Shown here piece after piece: positions 7,267 through 63,573 of a stretch of DNA of 64,000 bases; the stretch's first letter is position 1, and each line of letters starts with the position of its first letter. A model generated the notes under the pieces. It ran no database searches. It had not been told where the DNA came from and saw only the letters and a program-made list of their open reading frames with translations. Origin of the DNA: an uncultured archaeon (lineage in GTDB: Archaea > Asgardarchaeota > Thorarchaeia > Thorarchaeales > Thorarchaeaceae); assembly GCA_964590575.1 (NCBI GenBank), contig CAZPWM010000004.1, forward strand, positions 275 to 64,274, in the 5' to 3' direction. The translations under genes were made by a program, and so were the position numbers.

Positions 7267-7385
7267 GCGGAGGTTGCCAAGCCAGGTTAAAGGCGCAGGG
7301 CTCAGATCCCTGTCTCGTAGGAGTACATGTGTAGGTTTTCCCTCACATGGCCGAATCGCGAGTTCGAATCTCGCCCTCCGCACCA
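7267..7385 (+). tRNA. tRNA-Leu (anticodon CAG) with about 30 nt extra sequence, either an intron or an unusually long variable region
   Basis: Acceptor stem GCGGAGG/CCTCCGC with discriminator A and encoded CCA; anticodon stem CAGGG/CCCTG with loop CTCAGAT; T arm GCGAG-TTCGAAT-CTCGC; total 119 nt against about 88 expected. Confidence 0.75.
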
Positions 7386-11905: not shown

Positions 11906-13711
11906 CTACTTCATAGGTCTTACTTTTTTAGAATGTTGAATAAGCCTGCGAATTCTATAAGCTTTATCGAGCATATCTTCTTCGTTCTCTTGAAGAATGA
12001 GCAACGCTCCAATATGATTACCAGCATTCAAAGCTCTAACCAAAGCTACAATGGCGATTAGAACTTCATCCTGAGTCGTGGCTGCTACCTCATTCATTAT
12101 ATTGATGGTGCTCTTGATTGGTTTTTTACTATCTGCATAGTGCAGAAAGCGTGTTTCAAAAACCGTGAATAGATCTTCGAATGCCTCCCTAAGCTCATTA
12201 GCTTCTCTGAAACCCTCTGCTGATTTTGATAGCAGCTCAATAGATTTCTCTATCATTTCTGATGAATCAGTTAGAAGGGCCTCCAATCCCGCTGTACGCA
12301 GCCATATTGTTGCTAATTCAGGAACACCGAGCTCTTGGTAATACTCTGCTGCATTCTCAGCCTTCTCACTTGCCATCCAATGAAATGAATCGTGTCTTTC
12401 CTTATCATCAAGCTTTATTGCACACTCTGCAGCTTTGGTATATAATCTGGAGCCGCTTTCTGGATCTCCCGAAGTCGATGCCTCATCAGCAAGTTGAATG
12501 TATAATTCTAAAGCATGCTCAAGATGACCCATCGCTTCTGTCACCCTGCCTGATTCTCGAAGAACCTCTGCAGCTTCTTCTAGAGTAATTGCCTGTCGTT
12601 CCTTGTTGCCATCTTTCTCTTCTGTCTTGGCTTCATTTAGATAATGAGATATGACTTTGACATATATCTCGCTGGCAACATCATCTTGCCCCCAATTCAG
12701 CAGACACATTGCTTGAAATCGCAAGTATTTCATTTCAGATTCAGTGTCATTTTGGGTCTTTGCCTTTTTCGCTAGTTCCCCAAATAGCTCATTTGCATTA
12801 AGGAACGCCCACTTGGCTTTCATGGGGCGGCTTATTTCCTTGAACATGTTTCCTGCTTTGACGAGCAAAGGCGCAACTGCTTCGGGTGCTCCTTGAGCTT
12901 TGAGATATGCTTCGGCCGCTTTCGATATAGCTTGGTTTCTTGCAGAAGTGAGTCTTTGAAGTTTGTAGGCTTCTTGAGCTGCATCATAGATATTACCCGC
13001 CTTTTCAAAAAGCTCAGCTGCTTCGTAAAACTCTCCTGCCTCCATCATGGTGCGTGTTGCTTCAGGAGACTCCCCTTTTGTTTCCATAATCTGTGCTGCT
13101 TCTGCTAGTGCATTGCCTGCCGAAATGTAATCTCCACTTCCTTTCGATAGATTCGCCCAGCGTCGTGCAACCTTCACAGTTCTATCACTGATTCTATTTC
13201 CTAACTCATCATCCCCTGCTGTATAGTATAATCTGCTTACTTTTCGTAGCAGGCCAATAGTTTCAGCAAAGTCTTTTTCTTCCTCTCTAGCATCCGCTAA
13301 TATTTCCAGAGCATCCGCTGTTTTGATACTTAGCTCTGCCTTCTCTTTATCATCAACAGCAAAGTCTTGTGCTCTGAGGTAGTAGTCTGCAGCTTTCTTG
13401 TATTCAGTCGCTTCTTCAGCAATCTTTGCCGCTGTCTTATTGATCCGCACAATTTCTTTGTATATTTCAGGTCCTTGTGGCAGACGAATCAACATCAGTG
13501 TCGCATTATCAAGAGACTTGAAACATTCATCCGCCTCGTATAAATCTCTGTAAATGAGTGCTCCTTCTTCGTAAATCTTAGCTGCTTTTTCGTATTCCAT
13601 CTTTGTCGCAAGACGACTGGCAGCAGCGAGAAATAGTTTCGCTCCTACCTCTCTGTTACCTTCCTCTAGTGCATTTCTTGCCTCTTTTAGGATATCCTCG
13701 TCCGAAGCCAA
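11906..13711 (-). CDS. Large all-helical TPR-like repeat protein
   Basis: 601 aa of repeated Ala/Glu/Lys/Tyr-rich helical hairpins (AxxYY, EAxxxYxxA patterns). Confidence 0.5.
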   Translation of the reverse strand: MASDEDILKEARNALEEGNREVGAKLFLAAASRLATKMEYEKAAKIYEEGALIYRDLYEADECFKSLDNATLMLIRLPQGPEIYKEIVRINKTAAKIAEEATEYKKAADYYLRAQDFAVDDKEKAELSIKTADALEILADAREEEKDFAETIGLLRKVSRLYYTAGDDELGNRISDRTVKVARRWANLSKGSGDYISAGNALAEAAQIMETKGESPEATRTMMEAGEFYEAAELFEKAGNIYDAAQEAYKLQRLTSARNQAISKAAEAYLKAQGAPEAVAPLLVKAGNMFKEISRPMKAKWAFLNANELFGELAKKAKTQNDTESEMKYLRFQAMCLLNWGQDDVASEIYVKVISHYLNEAKTEEKDGNKERQAITLEEAAEVLRESGRVTEAMGHLEHALELYIQLADEASTSGDPESGSRLYTKAAECAIKLDDKERHDSFHWMASEKAENAAEYYQELGVPELATIWLRTAGLEALLTDSSEMIEKSIELLSKSAEGFREANELREAFEDLFTVFETRFLHYADSKKPIKSTINIMNEVAATTQDEVLIAIVALVRALNAGNHIGALLILQENEEDMLDKAYRIRRLIQHSKKVRPMK

Positions 13712-55904: not shown

Positions 55905-56200
55905 GTCGCATGGTTTCCCCCGTCAAGGAACTCGCGTGTTAACACGGTCCCAAAGTGAGTTCTGGTCCCTATTGCCTGTTACTAGGCAAATCTTGCGCAT
56001 GTAATTTTTAACCATGCATCCTGTTAGGAAGAGCTCCACGGATGCGGAAGGTTCGCCTTGGCGGACCAGCCGCTCCAACCTTATTCACGCTGAGGGCATT
56101 AATAGACACACGGAATATCAAAATATACACACAGAACATCTTAATCTACAACCAAAAAATAACTTGCAGACTAAGAGGCTTCAAAAAACCAGGCCTCTCG
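55905..56200 (+). ncRNA. Candidate structured RNA (unassigned) in a GC-rich segment upstream of, or overlapping, the annotated GTPase 5' end
   Basis: Long-range pairing GCATGGTT (55908-15) with AACCATGC (56010-17); local hairpins CGTGTTAACACG (55935-46), GCCTGTTACTAGGC, CGCCTTGGCG (56055-64), AGAGGC-(13)-GCCTCT (56174-98); the region is GC-rich against AT-rich flanks and its translation is Arg/Ser/Pro-rich. Confidence 0.25.
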
Positions 56201-56202
56201 GT

Positions 56203-58014
56203 TTGATTGAACCTGGTGATATCGAAGTGATTCACAACACCTTCCTTGTTCGCATATCCAACCGGCAAATAATTGCATCTACCCAGTATTGGCCAGTTGA
56301 GGTGAGAAACGAAGCACTGAATGAATTCATCTCCACAAGAGAGGATCTCAGAACAGAACATGGCCAGGTGTCAGAACTACCTCTGATTATTGGGGATCAC
56401 AAATTCCTAGGAAAAGACTGGATTGAGGATTCAGTTCTTGTTTTCGTTACCGACAAGGGTGAGGATGAAAGCAATACCTATGAAAAGATAGACTTGGCTT
56501 TGAAAGCTCTTAGAACGACTTTCAAAAAGAAAGGGATTGAAGGAGCAATCAAGAATTATAGCAATCTTATCGAACCTTCTATTACAACTAGACTCAAGAT
56601 TGCTCTGGTCGGAGAAGGTGGTGTTGGGAAAACAACTACCTTGCATCTCCTCTTAGGTGATACGCCACCTCTACAGTATGTTCCAACAATAGCGTTGAAT
56701 TTAGAAACAGTTGAGAACATTCGCTTTGGCAACTACTCTCTGGTTCTATGGGACTTTGCTGGACAGGAACGGTTTCGAACTTTGTGGCGGTTCTACTTCC
56801 ATGGTGCAGATGTTATTTTCCTCGTGTGTGACTCCACTTTAAGGAACGTCATCATAAGCAAAGATATTCTCAAACTAATCAAACGAGATGCACCAAAGGT
56901 GCCTATATTTGCATTAGCAAATAAGCAGGATAAACCAAATGCTATGAAACCTGAAGTTGTTCAGAAGATTCTAGGGATTCCTACATATTCTATGGTGGCT
57001 ATCGACAAAGACCGTCGCGACGAAATGTTACGTATTCTTATGACTGCAGCTGCGCAGTACGTTGGCGTGGCTCTCCCAGACCTTCCTGCCGCAGAGCTAC
57101 TGAAATTCACAGACGCAGCCACTAAAGAAGCAATTGCAGAAGCAGATGCCATAGAGGTTAAGGCAATCGAAGAGGAAGAGATCGAGGAAGAAGAAGAGAT
57201 TGAAGAAGAACTTGAGGATGAAGAGTACGAAGAAGTAATTGAAGAAATCTTTGTTGATGAAGAAGGTCACGTGATTGAAAATCTCGATGAGTATGAGATT
57301 GTTGAAGAAGATGCAGATGAATCCATAGCGGTACCTACTGCAGCGGATGAAGTTGAGATAGAGGTTGAATCTCCGGAAGCGTTTGATATCCCTACAGTGG
57401 ATGATGCAGAGATTATAGAAGAGGTAGAAATTGAAATAGAGTCAGAACCTGAGCCAATTGAAGAATTCATTGAAGATGTTGTAAAGGAACCTATTGAGGC
57501 TTTTGAGGCGATTGCAGAAGAAGGTCCTGTGATCGAAGTGGTTACTAAAGATGAGCCAGAATCTGAACCTGTTGGAGCAGAGACTGAGACAGCTGAAGCG
57601 ACATATTTCGATTCTGGACCTGTATTAATAATAGAAGAGAATACTGACGCAATGAAGATGGCTAAGGATATCATCTTTGAGGCTCTTGAAACAGATGATA
57701 TTGATGATATTATTGCAACTGAGATTGAACAAGCCTCTGACGAAGAGATAGATACTGCTCTTCAGGCGATTGGGAGCGACGAAACAATCCCACTTGAAAA
57801 TGAACTTGTAGAGACTGAAGAGATTGATGCTGAATCGCTAATCGAACTTGAAAAATTTCTAGGTCCCTTGGATCGGCCCATTGGTGGTACTGGAATTGTA
57901 AAAACAGATGAAGATGATGAAGAAAACGACTCTTATCTCCCACTCAACGGTGAAACCCTTGCTGAGCTTGACCGTCTGTTCGATGCAAGTCAGGAAGACG
58001 GCGATTCAGACTGA
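56203..58014 (+). CDS. Arf/Arl-like small GTPase with an N-terminal Roadblock-like domain and a roughly 330-aa acidic low-complexity tail
   Basis: G1 GEGGVGKTT, Arf-type WDFAGQERFRTLWRFYF, NKQD; the C-terminus is made of E/D/I-rich repeats; start uncertain (the TTG at 56203 is chosen, the track ATG at 56014 is probably non-coding). Confidence 0.6.
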   Translation: MIEPGDIEVIHNTFLVRISNRQIIASTQYWPVEVRNEALNEFISTREDLRTEHGQVSELPLIIGDHKFLGKDWIEDSVLVFVTDKGEDESNTYEKIDLALKALRTTFKKKGIEGAIKNYSNLIEPSITTRLKIALVGEGGVGKTTTLHLLLGDTPPLQYVPTIALNLETVENIRFGNYSLVLWDFAGQERFRTLWRFYFHGADVIFLVCDSTLRNVIISKDILKLIKRDAPKVPIFALANKQDKPNAMKPEVVQKILGIPTYSMVAIDKDRRDEMLRILMTAAAQYVGVALPDLPAAELLKFTDAATKEAIAEADAIEVKAIEEEEIEEEEEIEEELEDEEYEEVIEEIFVDEEGHVIENLDEYEIVEEDADESIAVPTAADEVEIEVESPEAFDIPTVDDAEIIEEVEIEIESEPEPIEEFIEDVVKEPIEAFEAIAEEGPVIEVVTKDEPESEPVGAETETAEATYFDSGPVLIIEENTDAMKMAKDIIFEALETDDIDDIIATEIEQASDEEIDTALQAIGSDETIPLENELVETEEIDAESLIELEKFLGPLDRPIGGTGIVKTDEDDEENDSYLPLNGETLAELDRLFDASQEDGDSD

Positions 58015-58967: not shown

Positions 58968-59915
58968 GTGGCTGTTTCGCTCATCGATGAATCGACAAGT
59001 AAGAAACAGATTATTCCCCTCTTGCTTCTTTCCGTTTCAATGGTTTCAAGTGCCAGTATTTTGATTCTCTTCAGTTCTTCCCATCCTTTTGTAATCGTTT
59101 TTTGGAGGACCCTTTACGGAGCAATTTTCATGGCTTCGATTGGTGCAGTTAGAGGTGACCTTTCATCTCTGAAAAAACCAGTTGTACGTAATAATTTGCA
59201 TTGGCTTCTTGCCATAGGAGTAACATTGTCTCTTCACTTTTGCACATGGTTTCAATCTCTGTTTATGACAACCGTTGCTGCTAGTGTGGTTCTTGTTGAT
59301 TCATCTCCTATTTTCACTGCAATTCTTTCAACTCTGTTTCTTGGCGAAGCCTTACGAAGAAGATCTTGGTTTGGAATCCTGATAGCTTTGATTGGCGCTG
59401 TTTTCTTAGCCTGGGGTGATTTTGGAGGAAGTGGTATCATAGCTCTGGGAGGGGATCTCCTTGCACTTGCAGGAGCTGTCTTTCTCGCACTCTATTTCAT
59501 AGGTGGCCGGCGAATTGCTAAGGAGATGCCAATTACGGTTTACACTACAGTGATTTACCTGTTCGCAGCGATTAGTACCTTAGTAATCTGTATCGTTTTC
59601 AACCTGAATGTTCTTGTTTTCGAACCAACCGAGGTTGCAATTTTCATTGCTCTAGCAATATTTCCAACTGTACTTGGTCATTCTGTTAATAATTACTTAC
59701 TTACAAAGGTGCCAGCCTATGTTGTTTCTTCAGCTGTTCTGGGAGAACCAATAGGTGCAGCCCTCTTAGCTGCTTTCATTTTCGCACAGATTCCAGGACC
59801 AACAGCTATTATCGGATTCTTTGTGATTCTGGCTGGCATAGCAGTAGTGTTGGTGGATATTGCTGCACGTGAAAGAGATAGAATCTCAACCCTTGATAAC
59901 ACCGATAGGTCGTAA
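58968..59915 (+). CDS. DMT-superfamily (EamA-like) transporter
   Basis: Ten TM segments arranged as two EamA halves. Confidence 0.7.
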   Translation: MAVSLIDESTSKKQIIPLLLLSVSMVSSASILILFSSSHPFVIVFWRTLYGAIFMASIGAVRGDLSSLKKPVVRNNLHWLLAIGVTLSLHFCTWFQSLFMTTVAASVVLVDSSPIFTAILSTLFLGEALRRRSWFGILIALIGAVFLAWGDFGGSGIIALGGDLLALAGAVFLALYFIGGRRIAKEMPITVYTTVIYLFAAISTLVICIVFNLNVLVFEPTEVAIFIALAIFPTVLGHSVNNYLLTKVPAYVVSSAVLGEPIGAALLAAFIFAQIPGPTAIIGFFVILAGIAVVLVDIAARERDRISTLDNTDRS

Positions 59916-61331
59916 CCGTACCGCCTTTGTGGCGATACCCACTGCATCAGAAACTTTCACAACTTCATCAACATCTTTGTACGCTCCAGGTGCTTCCTCT
60001 GCAATCACAATACCCTTGGTTGCTCTTACGAGGATTCCTTCTGAAGCGAGTTTCTGTTGTACTTCTTTCCCGAAGAACTGTTTCTTTGCTTTCGACCGAC
60101 TCATGAACCGCCCTGCTCCATGAGCTGTTGAACCCCATGTCAATTCCATTCCTTTCTGGTTACCAATCAGAATGTATGATGCAGTACCCATTGTCCCTGG
60201 AATAATCACTGGCTGTCCCACCTCTCGATATTTTACTGGCACTTCAGGATGACCTGGCGGAAATGCACGAGTCGCACCCTTTCTATGAACGACGACTTTA
60301 GTCTTCTTTCCATCTATATTATGTTCTTCAACCTTGCCCATATTATGAGCGACATCGTAGATGAGACCCATGTCTAAATCCTCCGCTGAGCTCCGCATCA
60401 CCTTTGCAAATGCTTCTCTTGTCCAGTGCATCATCACTTGTCTATTTGCGAAGGCATAATTCGCTGCTGCACTCATTGCTCCCAGATATGCTTGTCCTTC
60501 AGGTGAGGTTGTAGGTGCACAACAAAGTTCTCGATCTGGAACTTCAATGTTGTATTTTCTCATTGCATGTGTCATTATCTTAATGTATTCAGAGCACACT
60601 TGATGTCCGAGACCACGAGAACCACTATGTATCATCACCATGACCTGTTTCTTTCTGGTGATGCCCATTATCTTAGCTGCTTCTTCGTCATAGATATCAT
60701 CGACCACTTGAATCTCTAGAAAGTGATTCCCTGATCCAAGTGTACCACTCTGTTTGAGACCTCGACTCTTAGCAGTGTCCTGAACATCAGAAGGATTCGC
60801 AATATCGAGTTTTCCATTGGCTTCTTGATGATTTAGATCCTCTTCCCAACCATATCCTTGTTCTATAGCCCACTCTGAACCATTTGCAAGGACCTCATCT
60901 ACTCCTCTATAGTTTCGCAAATCGATTTTGCCTTGCTTTCCTACACCAGTAGGCACATCATCAAATAACTGATCGATTAAGTCTCTAATCTTTGGCTGAA
61001 CGTCACTCTCATCAAGATTTGTTCTTAGAATCCGAACCCCACAATTGATATCATAGCCGACCCCACCTGGAGAAATCACGCCCGATTCATAATCCGTTGC
61101 AGCAACTCCACCTATTGGAAATCCATACCCTTGATGACCATCTGGTAGTACTATGCTGTGTTTGTATATCCCTGGCAGACATGCTGCATTCGTTGCTTGT
61201 GTGAAGGTTGCATCTTGCCTCATCTTCTTTACAAGACTATCAGAGGCAAATATTGTGACCGGAACCTTCATGCATGATTGGGTGCCCTTGGGGATTTCAT
61301 GGATGTATTCAGAGACCTTCTTGATATCCAC
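59886..61331 (-). CDS. rtcB: RNA-splicing ligase RtcB
   Basis: LPGIYKHSIVLPDGHQGYGFPIGGVAA, GYDINCGVR, GSGNHF, HGAGR motifs; 481 aa, no intein. Confidence 0.85.
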   Translation of the reverse strand: MDIKKVSEYIHEIPKGTQSCMKVPVTIFASDSLVKKMRQDATFTQATNAACLPGIYKHSIVLPDGHQGYGFPIGGVAATDYESGVISPGGVGYDINCGVRILRTNLDESDVQPKIRDLIDQLFDDVPTGVGKQGKIDLRNYRGVDEVLANGSEWAIEQGYGWEEDLNHQEANGKLDIANPSDVQDTAKSRGLKQSGTLGSGNHFLEIQVVDDIYDEEAAKIMGITRKKQVMVMIHSGSRGLGHQVCSEYIKIMTHAMRKYNIEVPDRELCCAPTTSPEGQAYLGAMSAAANYAFANRQVMMHWTREAFAKVMRSSAEDLDMGLIYDVAHNMGKVEEHNIDGKKTKVVVHRKGATRAFPPGHPEVPVKYREVGQPVIIPGTMGTASYILIGNQKGMELTWGSTAHGAGRFMSRSKAKKQFFGKEVQQKLASEGILVRATKGIVIAEEAPGAYKDVDEVVKVSDAVGIATKAVRLRPIGVIKG

Positions 61332-61505
61332 TTCGAATCACACTCTTAGAATGGCGCATCGCTTCGTAACTCTGGCTATAAGGCTTGTGAAGTGAGCTTG
61401 ACCCAGAATCTTATTACTCCCTACCCCCAGAAGTGAGCTGGGTAGGATTACCCTAAATTGCAAAGGAGGATGAGTCACCAAGTGCCTGAAGTACGACTGA
61501 CTGCA

Positions 61506-62516
61506 ATGGTAACTTCTCACGGCTGAAGCTGCAAGGTCCAACAGAATGATCTTACTCGCCTTTTACAAACTGCAAACTTGCTTCCTTCTGGGTCTAGTAC
61601 CGCAGAGGAAATCGGTGATGACGCAGTGGTCCGTGTCATCAGTGACGACATAGCAGTTGTAGAAAACGTGGATATCTTCACACCCATCCATGATGACCCT
61701 AACCTACAGGGCGAGATTGTCGCATGCAATGCTACTAACGATATCTTTGCTATGGGTGTCACTGACATTCTCTCATTTCAAGCATTCCTTGCTTATCCCA
61801 AGGATTTGCCAGAAGAGATTGTTGTGGGAGTTCTCAAAGGAATGAAGAGTTTCATGGAACGCCATAGGGCAAAGATTTCTGGTGGCCAGACAATCACGAA
61901 TCCTGTTCCGGTCTTCGGGGGGATTGCACTTGGCACTGCGCACCCGCGTGATATTGTATATTCACGTGGTGCTAAGGCTGGCGATGTAGTCCTTCTGACA
62001 AAGCCACTGGGTATACAACCAGCGATGAGATCATACAGAGACCTTAGAGATGAGAAACGCGATGCGCTTTTGTCTGAATTCAAGGAGTCTGACCTCAAAC
62101 GAATGCAGGATGTTGCTGTTCGGCTGATGACCTTCAGCAATCTTGAGGTTGCTCAAGCAATGCGAAGTGTTGGAGTGCATGCTGCAACAGATATCACAGG
62201 ATTCGGTCTACTCGGTCATGCTGGAAACGTCAGTTCTCTAAGTGGAGTTGATGTGGTTATCGATCAAGTCCCTGTGATTCGTGGGACTCTTCAACTGGCT
62301 GAGTTCTTTGGTCATAAACTCTCAACTGGATTCGGTGCCGAGACCGCAGGTGGAATGCTTGTGTTCTTGGAACCAAGTAAGGAAGAAGAGTTTCGAAGAT
62401 TCCTCAAAGAAAAGAAGCTGCCCTGTTGGCCTGTTGGCAAAGCTGTGAAACCTATAGGATCACCTTGTGCATGTCTTGCACAGGATGCACAGTTTATCGA
62501 GACCGAATTCCCATGA
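61506..62516 (+). CDS. selD: Selenophosphate synthetase SelD with an in-frame UGA (selenocysteine) at 61524-61526
   Basis: Reading from the ATG at 61506 gives MVTSHG-U-SCKVQQNDLTRLL...GDDAVV, which aligns with the SHGAGCGCK...GDDAAV region of SelD/SPS2 and puts U where the catalytic Cys/Sec sits; downstream AIR-synthase-like fold (NDIFAMG, GGQT). Confidence 0.75.
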
Positions 62517-62545
62517 TTACAATGGAAAACCCTCTGGGCCCATGT

Positions 62546-62583
62546 ATGAGGACCGCTGCTGCGAGCAGCCGGTCTCCAATCAT
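62546..62583 (+). other. Stable imperfect hairpin 30 nt 3' of the selD stop; candidate SECIS-like element
   Basis: AUGA GGA CC GCUGC (UGCGA) GCAGC c GG uc UCC aa UCAU, about 16 bp with 3'-side bulges. Confidence 0.25.
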
Positions 62584-62739
62584 TCTCTCAATTTGTCGGT
62601 TTGCGCAATTCAAAGTCACTAGTGTGGTTTACCCTACAGGTGGCGCCTGAAGTTGTCAGACCGACGATAGCACTACAAACCTTATAATGAGCATCAGAAT
62701 ATTGGAAATACGCTAATTCGAAGTCAGAATGGTGGTTGC

Positions 62740-63573
62740 ATGAAGATTGTCGTTACTGGTCCCTATGAATCTGGTAAGAGCCTGATGATTCATCATATCA
62801 CAAACGGTGCATGCATCAATGTTGAACGTAGGGGAACTACAATTGCGATGGACCATGGCTTAGCTAATGTAGATGGAATGAGCGTCTTCATGTTCGGAAC
62901 TCCTGGACTCCTTCGCTTTCGTACGATGCGGAAGATTCTCAGTGAAGGCGCAGATGGAATCGTCTTTGTCGTTGATTCAGTTGATCCAGAATCTGACGCT
63001 CGTGCAAAGTTGTTTTTCAGAGAGATTGCATTCTTCTTACCTGGAGTGCCCTGTGTAGTTGCAGCGAATAAACAGGACCTTCCGGAAGCCCGACCCATCG
63101 ATCATCTTCGGAAGAATCTTAGATTTCTAGCTGGTCTCCCAGTGTTTCCTGTTTCAGCCAAAACTGGAGAAAATGTTGACAGTATGCTCCGGACACTTCT
63201 GTATCTTGTTATGATGCAATGGAGTTCTGTCTTTAGAAAATTTGCTGAGCATAGTGGAGATAAGAAAGGGCTTAGTAAAATGATGAAAGACCTGAATATT
63301 GAACGCGAACAAGCAGTAGGTTATCTGCGCCGGTTTGAGCTGAGGAAGCTACTAGAAGTCCAAGTGGGCGACGAGCAGTTCGTCGTCAAAGACTCTGTGC
63401 AACCGCTTCTCGAGAATCCCGTCTTACTTATGCGTCGGTTGTTTGAATTTCATCTTTATTTCATCAACGCGCTCTTTCTAGATGTTTTAATATCGCATCC
63501 AATGTCGTTCAGAAAGAATCAAAAGCGATATAGCCCGCCAACGTTGATGTTTTCAGGTGAGTCAAATGAGTGA
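62740..63573 (+). CDS. MglA-like small GTPase with a roughly 110-aa C-terminal extension
   Basis: GPYESGKS (compare MglA GPGLCGKT), FGTPG (compare TVPGQ), GADGIVFVVDS, NKQDLP. Confidence 0.65.
   Translation: MKIVVTGPYESGKSLMIHHITNGACINVERRGTTIAMDHGLANVDGMSVFMFGTPGLLRFRTMRKILSEGADGIVFVVDSVDPESDARAKLFFREIAFFLPGVPCVVAANKQDLPEARPIDHLRKNLRFLAGLPVFPVSAKTGENVDSMLRTLLYLVMMQWSSVFRKFAEHSGDKKGLSKMMKDLNIEREQAVGYLRRFELRKLLEVQVGDEQFVVKDSVQPLLENPVLLMRRLFEFHLYFINALFLDVLISHPMSFRKNQKRYSPPTLMFSGESNE

Follow-up and report, generated by a model that had tools for sequence, protein, structure and literature searches.

A 64-kb stretch of DNA from an uncultured archaeon (64,000 nucleotides of contig CAZPWM010000004.1, assembly GCA_964590575.1; hereafter the window) carries, near its right-hand end, a selD gene whose beginning is missing from automated gene calls. 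Our analysis indicates that positions 61482–62516 very probably encode the selenophosphate synthetase SelD of a Thorarchaeote, in which the UGA at codon 15 would be translated as selenocysteine (Sec) under the direction of a type II selenocysteine insertion sequence (SECIS) element at 62499–62576. Four sets of observations carry this assignment: the protein's identity, the placement of the UGA and its conservation among relatives, the coding constraint on the codons around it, and an RNA structure at the gene end whose pairs covary. An initial annotation of the window, made from the sequence without database searches, had proposed that selD is recoded through an in-frame TGA and that the listed open reading frame (ORF) truncates the gene.

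SelD and the in-frame UGA at its catalytic position

For all protein searches, cysteine was substituted for the TGA codon. Two NCBIfam SelD equivalogs matched the extended product with scores exceeding their cutoffs: NF010705 gave 294.4 bits (cutoff 291; residues 7–343 aligned with profile positions 5–343 of 345) and TIGR00476 gave 216.3 bits (cutoff 125). Both alignments began at model position 1–5, and this near end-to-end coverage was obtained only when the upstream codons were included. The extended product also matched the Pfam domains AIRS (PF00586, 2e-14) and AIRS_C (PF02769, 6e-17), as well as solved SelD/SPS structures. Its N-terminus aligned without gaps to Escherichia coli SelD (3u0o), with IRLTQYSHGAGCGCK placed against VRLTAMVTSHG[TGA]SCK of the window, so that the TGA coincides with the catalytic Cys17, and the lysine three residues further on is conserved. 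The same place is occupied by KGCSCK in the Leishmania SPS (5l16) and by SSGCAAK in the Aquifex protein (2yye), again with the TGA on their cysteine. Judged by these matches, the gene specifies an entire selenophosphate synthetase (SelD; also selenide, water dikinase) from a member of the Thorarchaeota, a predicted enzyme whose catalytic N-terminal glycine-rich loop, G-[U/C]-x-C-K, reads G-U-S-C-K here. The proposals that the gene is selD and that its TGA occupies the catalytic Cys/Sec position were thus borne out. The motif HG-[GA]-x-[C/U] given in the initial annotation identified the catalytic residue correctly, but its register is off by two residues because the HG of the window pairs with AG of the E. 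coli protein.

The listed ORF begins at a TTG (61578) and ends at 62516, and exactly this 312-aa product is what the public protein collection contains, in keeping with the proposed truncation. The catalytic loop is absent from the 312-aa product and aligns only when the upstream codons are included. An ATG at 61506 and the TGA at 61524–61526 are both in frame with the listed ORF, and the codons added from this ATG translate as MVTSHG*SCKVQQNDLTRLLQTANLL; the frame and the translation quoted earlier were therefore reproduced. The open frame extends farther 5′ than this ATG, via a GTG at 61482 to an ATG at 61470, with stops immediately beyond. ATG 61470 abuts the Shine-Dalgarno-like AAGGAGG box without a spacer, and the spacing between the box and the GTG is rather long, at ~11–13 nt.

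Comparison of the Thorarchaeota loci with upstream sequence bears on the choice between these codons. The start position is occupied by GTG in 46 of 48 loci and by TTG in one, and 11 loci (L005, L010, L023, L024, L025, L029, L033, L034, L041, L044, and L048) carry a TAA, TAG, or TGA between the Shine-Dalgarno region and the conserved GTG; in L005, CTG stands at the window's ATG position, and the codon directly before the GTG is TAG. Because these 11 loci have a stop between the Shine-Dalgarno region and the GTG, we place the family-wide start at the position corresponding to GTG 61482 of the window, which gives a predicted product of 344 residues with Sec at position 15. Formally, ATG 61470 could still serve as an alternative start in this particular genome; in the 11 stop-bearing loci, selD annotations starting at the upstream ATG would be wrong. 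The start at ATG 61506 favored by the initial annotation did not hold: five loci have TTG in its place and L044 has CTT, and the codon is an internal methionine downstream of the conserved GTG.

A scan of species-representative genomes yielded 52 loci, 49 from Thorarchaeota-like metagenome-assembled genomes (MAGs) and three from Promethearchaeota, with protein identities to the window of 39–87% across the whole set (63–87% for the Thorarchaeota-like loci and ~40% for the Promethearchaeota). Because the relatives are mostly Thorarchaeota-like MAGs at 63–87% identity, we assign the window to a Thorarchaeote, in agreement with its earlier attribution to an Asgard archaeon. According to the initial annotation, the proposal would fail if close relatives carried a sense codon at the recoded position and the upstream codons did not align. 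Instead, the codon was TGA in 52 of 52 sequences (the window and 51 loci with upstream sequence), well beyond what chance would produce, within a conserved peptide, RLTAMVT[ST]HG*SCKVKQ.DL. The R, L, T, V, H, and G residues 5′ of the TGA are invariant, and two to six codons are used for each. Over the 31 codons from the GTG to the TTG at 61578, synonymous differences outnumbered nonsynonymous ones, 457 to 240, whereas 12 control codons 5′ of the GTG showed the reverse, 33 to 381. This pattern of variation indicates that the codons on both sides of the TGA are under purifying selection and translated.

A predicted type II SECIS element that includes the stop codon

The search for a SECIS element downstream of selD, which the initial annotation had proposed, was positive: an element with covarying pairs lies at the end of the gene (Table 1). 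Its parts are joined by short linkers, AAU after GAGACCG, C before AUGA, and CC after GGA. The upper segment reads, 5′ to 3′, U, UACA-A-UGG, AAAA, CCC-UCU-GGG, C, CCA-UGUA, U. It forms a stem of seven Watson-Crick pairs with one bulged A, plus a U-U next to the core, beneath an internal bulge with AAAA on the 5′ side, where [A/G]AA is conserved, and C on the 3′ side. The arrangement of a three-nucleotide bulge followed by tandem G.A/A.G pairs is that of a kink-turn. As modeled, the element matches the type II eukaryote-like SECIS of Huang et al., with an added side hairpin, and has the published type II features: an [A/G]UGA...[G/A]A core, an upper stem of 7–15 bp, a bulge of 4–12 nt, a ministem of 2–8 bp, and an apical loop of 2–6 nt.

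Table 1 Features of the selD locus and of the predicted SECIS element (positions in the window)
Feature	Position	Strand	Remarks
Shine-Dalgarno-like box AAGGAGG	61463–61469	+	GGAGG box kept at the same position in Thorarchaeota loci
Predicted full-length selD coding sequence	61482–62516	+	344 codons plus stop, from the conserved GTG, including the Sec codon
In-frame ATG, internal Met codon	61506–61508	+	conserved coding sequence 5′ of the ATG
In-frame TGA, candidate Sec codon	61524–61526	+	residue 15 counted from the GTG
TTG taken as start by mechanical and public gene calls	61578–61580	+	gives the truncated 312-aa product
Whole predicted SECIS, type II eukaryote-like with extra side hairpin	62499–62576	+	covers the last 5 sense codons and the selD stop
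Lower stem, 5′ strand GAGACCG	62499–62505	+	codons Glu-Thr-Glu; pairs with CGGUCUC at 62570–62576
Short stem UCC under the core	62509–62511	+	pairs with GGA at 62550–62552; canonical stem of the kink-turn-like core
5′ core AUGA	62513–62516	+	UGA at 62514–62516 is the selD stop codon
Upper stem	within 62517–62547	+	62518–62525 with 62540–62546; A62522 bulged; flanking U62517-U62547 mismatch
Unpaired AAAA	62526–62529	+	
Ministem CCC/GGG	62530–62532 with 62536–62538	+	UCU loop
3′ core GA	62548–62549	+	partner of the UGA in the G.A/A.G tandem
Side hairpin GCUGC-UGCGA-GCAGC	62555–62569	+	between the core and the lower stem
Lower stem, 3′ strand CGGUCUC	62570–62576	+	

The unpaired positions of the element are strongly conserved. 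Among the 49 Thorarchaeota elements, the core UGA is invariant (49/49), with A before it in 27, G in 21, and C in one, and the 3′ core has G in 48/49 and A in 49/49. The last two positions of the A-rich bulge, [A/G]AA, are A in 49/49 and 47/49, and the side-hairpin loop, Y-G-C-R-A, retains its G in 49/49, its C in 48/49, and its A in 49/49; an equivalent side hairpin is present in the Promethearchaeota locus L050. The paired positions vary in a compensatory manner. Such changes were found in five of the seven lower-stem pairs (99.2% of alignment cells paired) and in all five side-hairpin pairs (96.4% paired), and all eight model pairs of the upper stem have changed on both sides; the 3-bp UCC/GGA stem is nearly invariant, with 98.7% of cells paired.

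Quantitative comparison supported this structure. In the model-guided alignment, which is fitted to the model and leans somewhat to the structure, 87.9% of cells were paired, compared with 32–47% when the partners were slid by one to three columns, 22 of 26 pairs had changed on both sides, the covariation score was 0.384 against at most 0.118, and none of 500 shuffles equaled any observed measure. Two approaches are free of this bias. RNAalifold, run unguided on a plain MAFFT alignment, recovered the lower stem, the 3-bp stem, the upper stem, and the side hairpin, with compensatory changes in 12 of the 18 predicted pairs. Individual folding of the inner segments, 45 distinct sequences among 48, returned one type II shape in nearly all cases. 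Furthermore, a covariance model built from the element alignment (R1) found a single match in the window, at 62496–62582 (90.9 bits, E 6e-23), and one match at the selD end in each Thorarchaeota locus, including L007, which had been left out of training. Two of the Promethearchaeota loci, on which the model was not trained, were matched weakly after the stop (E 0.043 and 0.52).

Other candidate structures at the gene end were rejected. The single-sequence minimum-free-energy fold contains a hairpin at 62551–62575, in place of which covariation favors the lower stem and the shorter side hairpin. A loose published pattern for eukaryotic SECIS elements matched about a quarter of the TGAs in the window and does not discriminate; it missed the element described here because it disallows the U-U mismatch next to the core and the bulged A. 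The only match of this kind in the untranslated region (UTR), at 62688, was discarded as a SECIS, with pairing at five of seven positions. On reading the UTR we found no correctly oriented GAA_A bulge, and the sole hairpin GAA (62649–62651) belongs to the 3′ strand of a hairpin that is not conserved. The larger hairpin at 62593–62670 was dismissed as a SECIS or second element, since the 12 closest loci have no equivalent (z ~0) and it contains no core motif in the correct orientation. In its own right, this structure, located on the + strand between the SECIS and the next gene, is an imperfect hairpin of ~33 bp with a folding free energy of −32.8 kcal/mol (z −4.2; none of 200 shuffles matched this stability), and sequence conservation of its inner part (GCGCAAUUCAA ... 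GGCGCCUGAAGUUGU) extends to several of the 12 closest loci. Two sub-threshold snoRNA-like matches in Rfam were regarded as noise.

The stop codon of selD is itself part of the SECIS core. Among sequences where the Sec-site motif and the stop could both be placed, the terminal stop is TGA in 48 of 48 Thorarchaeota (window included) and TAG or TAA in the three Promethearchaeota loci, where the same element lies a few to ~30 nt downstream of the stop. These 48 stops are TGA because the stop is the UGA of the SECIS core. With TAA and TAG alone counted as stops, the selD frame is open from 61446 to 62687 on the + strand (413 codons) and takes in three TGA codons: that for Sec, the terminal one, and another at 62547. 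Continued translation beyond the terminal TGA was rejected: the sequence after it is variable in length and shows covariation as RNA, and in relatives stop codons follow shortly. The open tail beyond 62516 appears coincidental, as it is not conserved as coding sequence in relatives.

In the mechanism we propose, the UGA at codon 15 would be read as Sec under the direction of the SECIS ~990 nt downstream, acting at a distance, with EFSec, tRNA-Sec, and any SECIS-binding adaptor presumably taking part. A ribosome at the second UGA would already have melted the lower stem and the core, and because it would thereby have opened the SECIS, this codon would terminate translation rather than be recoded. 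We infer that the inserted residue is Sec and not another amino acid, and that the SECIS serves as a binding site for the Sec-specific elongation factor or for an adaptor. A further idea, which we consider unlikely, is that the fusion of stop and core is functional rather than incidental, with terminating ribosomes unwinding the SECIS, ensuring termination at the second UGA and coupling SECIS availability to ribosome traffic. If this were true, the coupling would act on the mRNA of the selenium-donor enzyme itself and amount to autoregulation, and a SECIS-binding factor of archaea might then dock on the invariant YGCRA loop in the side hairpin.

Alternative readings and the decoding machinery

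Several results weigh against Sec decoding of this gene. The 64-kb window contains no tRNA-Sec according to ARAGORN or to Rfam at its gathering threshold, and a Pfam search of 40 ORFs returned no EFSec/SelB, PSTK, SepSecS, or other selenoprotein. Rfam returned no SECIS family match over 61300–62800 at E values up to 10, so that no independent curated model stands behind the SECIS, and the ministem is paired in only 64.5% of the alignment. We also know of no experimental evidence of selenium incorporation for any Thorarchaeote. The Rfam result is expected, because Asgard SECIS elements are, to our knowledge, not represented in that database. ARAGORN found no tRNA at any of the 52 loci, which is a weak negative, as the program also missed the window's own tRNA. 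The full Sec trait is reported in 77.4% of sequenced Thorarchaeia (PMC11227280), and the Sec machinery genes are described as usually lying on separate contigs (PMC11227280, PMC4989117). Taking the published Thorarchaeia figure as a guide, the machinery of this organism is likely encoded elsewhere in its genome.

The simplest competing explanation is that the TGA is a true stop, the real gene being the 312-aa ORF from TTG 61578, or a pseudogene, and the upstream peptide a product of chance or decay. This is the form given by mechanical ORF calls and the public collection, and it would accord with a window in which no Sec machinery is seen. Yet it leaves a protein without its catalytic loop, and it does not account for the conserved Shine-Dalgarno box and GTG upstream or for the covarying SECIS at the gene end. 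Because the TGA is invariant in the 52 sequences and its flanks on both sides vary mainly synonymously, the locus is neither a pseudogene nor the result of a sequencing error, and translation does not begin at 61578. The conservation of the TGA, the codon variation, and the SECIS covariation together effectively refute this explanation, the least probable of those considered here.

Recoding without Sec, either by near-cognate insertion of tryptophan or cysteine or by genome-wide reassignment of UGA, is in our view very improbable. It draws on the fact that the inserted residue is deduced from sequence and that the machinery was not found in the window. UGA is not reassigned, because it ends selD itself in all 48 Thorarchaeota sequences and also neighboring genes, such as those for the cation-efflux protein and the CCA-adding enzyme. 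Read-through with another amino acid is at odds with the location of the codon at the Cys/Sec catalytic residue of SelD, with the defining SECIS features of the downstream element, and with the frequency of the Sec trait among Thorarchaeia cited above (PMC11227280). We regard it as extremely improbable that the structure at the gene end is instead a terminator, an mRNA-stability element, or an artefact of C-terminal codon conservation. Its location is where a terminator would be expected, and its 5′ part is coding, so that some conservation comes free. However, the upper stem, its most variable part, lies outside the coding sequence, with changes on both sides of every pair (8/8); the lower-stem pairs show covariation despite the coding role (Glu-Thr-Glu) of one strand; the invariant single-stranded bases are the SECIS signature, UGA...AA(A)...GA; and in Promethearchaeota the element lies entirely in the 3′ UTR, after a TAG or TAA. 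Sec insertion directed by a SECIS at the end of selD thus remains the reading that we favor.

The searches for decoding components produced some further observations. The window's tRNA, not detected by ARAGORN, was found by Rfam at 7267–7382 on the + strand (116 nt, 49.6 bits) and has a Leu-type anticodon loop, CUCAGAU, with the anticodon CAG. It contains ~45 extra nt after the anticodon stem, longer than a normal Leu variable arm, which may be an intron at a non-canonical position. Two pairs of ORFs joined by a TGA on the − strand were examined as selenoprotein candidates and rejected as separate genes, encoding a cation-efflux and a PAC2 protein (20129–17877) and a CCA-adding enzyme and a deacetylase (42108–39541).

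Gene neighborhood and relation to published systems

The selD gene lies in the order EamA transporter, RtcB (−), selD (+), and small Ras/Arf-like GTPase, over 58968–63573 of the window. This order is kept in at least 40 Thorarchaeota loci (within L001–L048) and is absent at the three Promethearchaeota selD loci. The GTPase downstream of selD has 277 aa, with a C-terminal extension of ~110 aa; it was rejected as a Sec-related factor, as the synteny is confined to Thorarchaeota and does not occur beside the Promethearchaeota selD. Elsewhere in the window, a multidomain protein of 666 aa that includes a Roc/Arf-type small GTPase domain (56014–58014, +) and a 601-aa protein with a SNAP-like repeat region (11906–13711, −) look like eukaryote-like signature proteins typical of Asgard genomes.

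In the spacer between rtcB and selD, a 17-nt block at 61375–61391, GCTATAAGGCTTGTGAA, shows 100% identity across loci that include distant Thorarchaeota. Read as its reverse complement (AAGCCTTATAGC), the block resembles AAACCTTATAAT (62676–62687), which lies upstream of the GTPase gene, inside 36–42 nt showing 100% conservation in several close relatives. Both motifs are probably promoter elements of the B recognition element (BRE)/TATA type, and that at 61375–61391 most likely serves rtcB. The selD 5′ region also contains a 10-nt direct repeat, GAAGTGAGCT, at 61389–61398 and 61430–61439, 41 nt apart, and the second copy sits within a small hairpin (CCUACCC ... GGGUAGG), in its loop and 3′ arm.

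Eukaryotic type II SECIS elements, as in SEPHS2 and other selenoprotein mRNAs, are kink-turns bound by SBP2. The element described here shares with them the AUGA/GA core of tandem sheared pairs with a helix above it, the unpaired adenines, and the ministem, and, like them, would work at a distance from the mRNA 3′ end. It differs in its shorter upper stem (8 bp), its extra side hairpin, and its lower stem within the coding sequence, and the Rfam model of the eukaryotic SECIS has no match over 61300–62800. In Methanococcus and Methanopyrus, where selD is also a selenoprotein gene, the euryarchaeal SECIS is built around a GAA_A bulge. It resembles the present element in its position at the mRNA 3′ end and its action on a distant UGA; the window, in contrast, has an AUGA/GA core and no oriented GAA_A bulge on reading of the UTR. 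SBP2 is reported to be absent from Asgard archaea (PMC11227280).

Sec-containing SelD, this type of SECIS, and the overlap of stop and SECIS are already known from published work on Asgard archaea. Mariotti et al. (2016) gave the first description of a Sec-containing SPS in Asgard archaea, from Lokiarchaeota, with a distinct type II-like SECIS, noted that overlap of lokiSECIS elements with coding sequence is possible, with the AUGA motif of VhuU.1 doubling as the stop, and made the minimal-distance argument for the second UGA in that lineage (PMC4989117). Huang, Xiao and Zhang (2024) surveyed more than 400 Asgard genomes, in which SelD was the most widespread selenoprotein and selD mostly carried type II elements; their main text describes Thorarchaeial selD with GUGA_GA cores, [U/A][A/G]AA purines, and G[A/U]G_C[U/A]C lower stems, and 30 nt upstream of the gene ends were extracted because UGA stops often overlap the AUGA (PMC11227280). 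The window shares with these Asgard genes the in-frame UGA at the homologous N-terminal site, the type II SECIS at the gene 3′ end, the [A/G]UGA_GA core, the [U/A][A/G]AA purines, and a GAG_CUC lower stem. As far as the main texts describe them, nothing substantive sets it apart, and its protein, at most 87% identical to the representatives, is another orthologue.

The VhuU.1 lokiSECIS, as described, is the closest precedent for the fusion of stop and core, since its core UGA is likewise the terminating codon and the element overlaps the coding sequence. It differs in being a type I element of a hydrogenase subunit gene in Lokiarchaeota, whereas that of the window is a type II selD element. 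In selD, moreover, the fusion is fixed in 48 of 48 Thorarchaeota, while the three Promethearchaeota genes keep stop and SECIS apart. We did not see this contrast between the two lineages stated in the main texts of the two papers, nor the YGCRA side hairpin common to both lineages; the supplementary figures may contain either. Both the stop/core fixation and the hairpin are refinements and not a new kind of system.

The finding adds little to the known biology, and its main worth lies in correcting the annotation, with selD at 61482–62516 and Sec at codon 15 in place of a 312-aa fragment. In addition, the comparative set yields a covariation-supported model of the Thorarchaeial selD SECIS, with a three-way architecture and the stop codon inside the core. 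This model could be used for annotating further genomes and for studying how archaea without SBP2 read a eukaryote-like SECIS.

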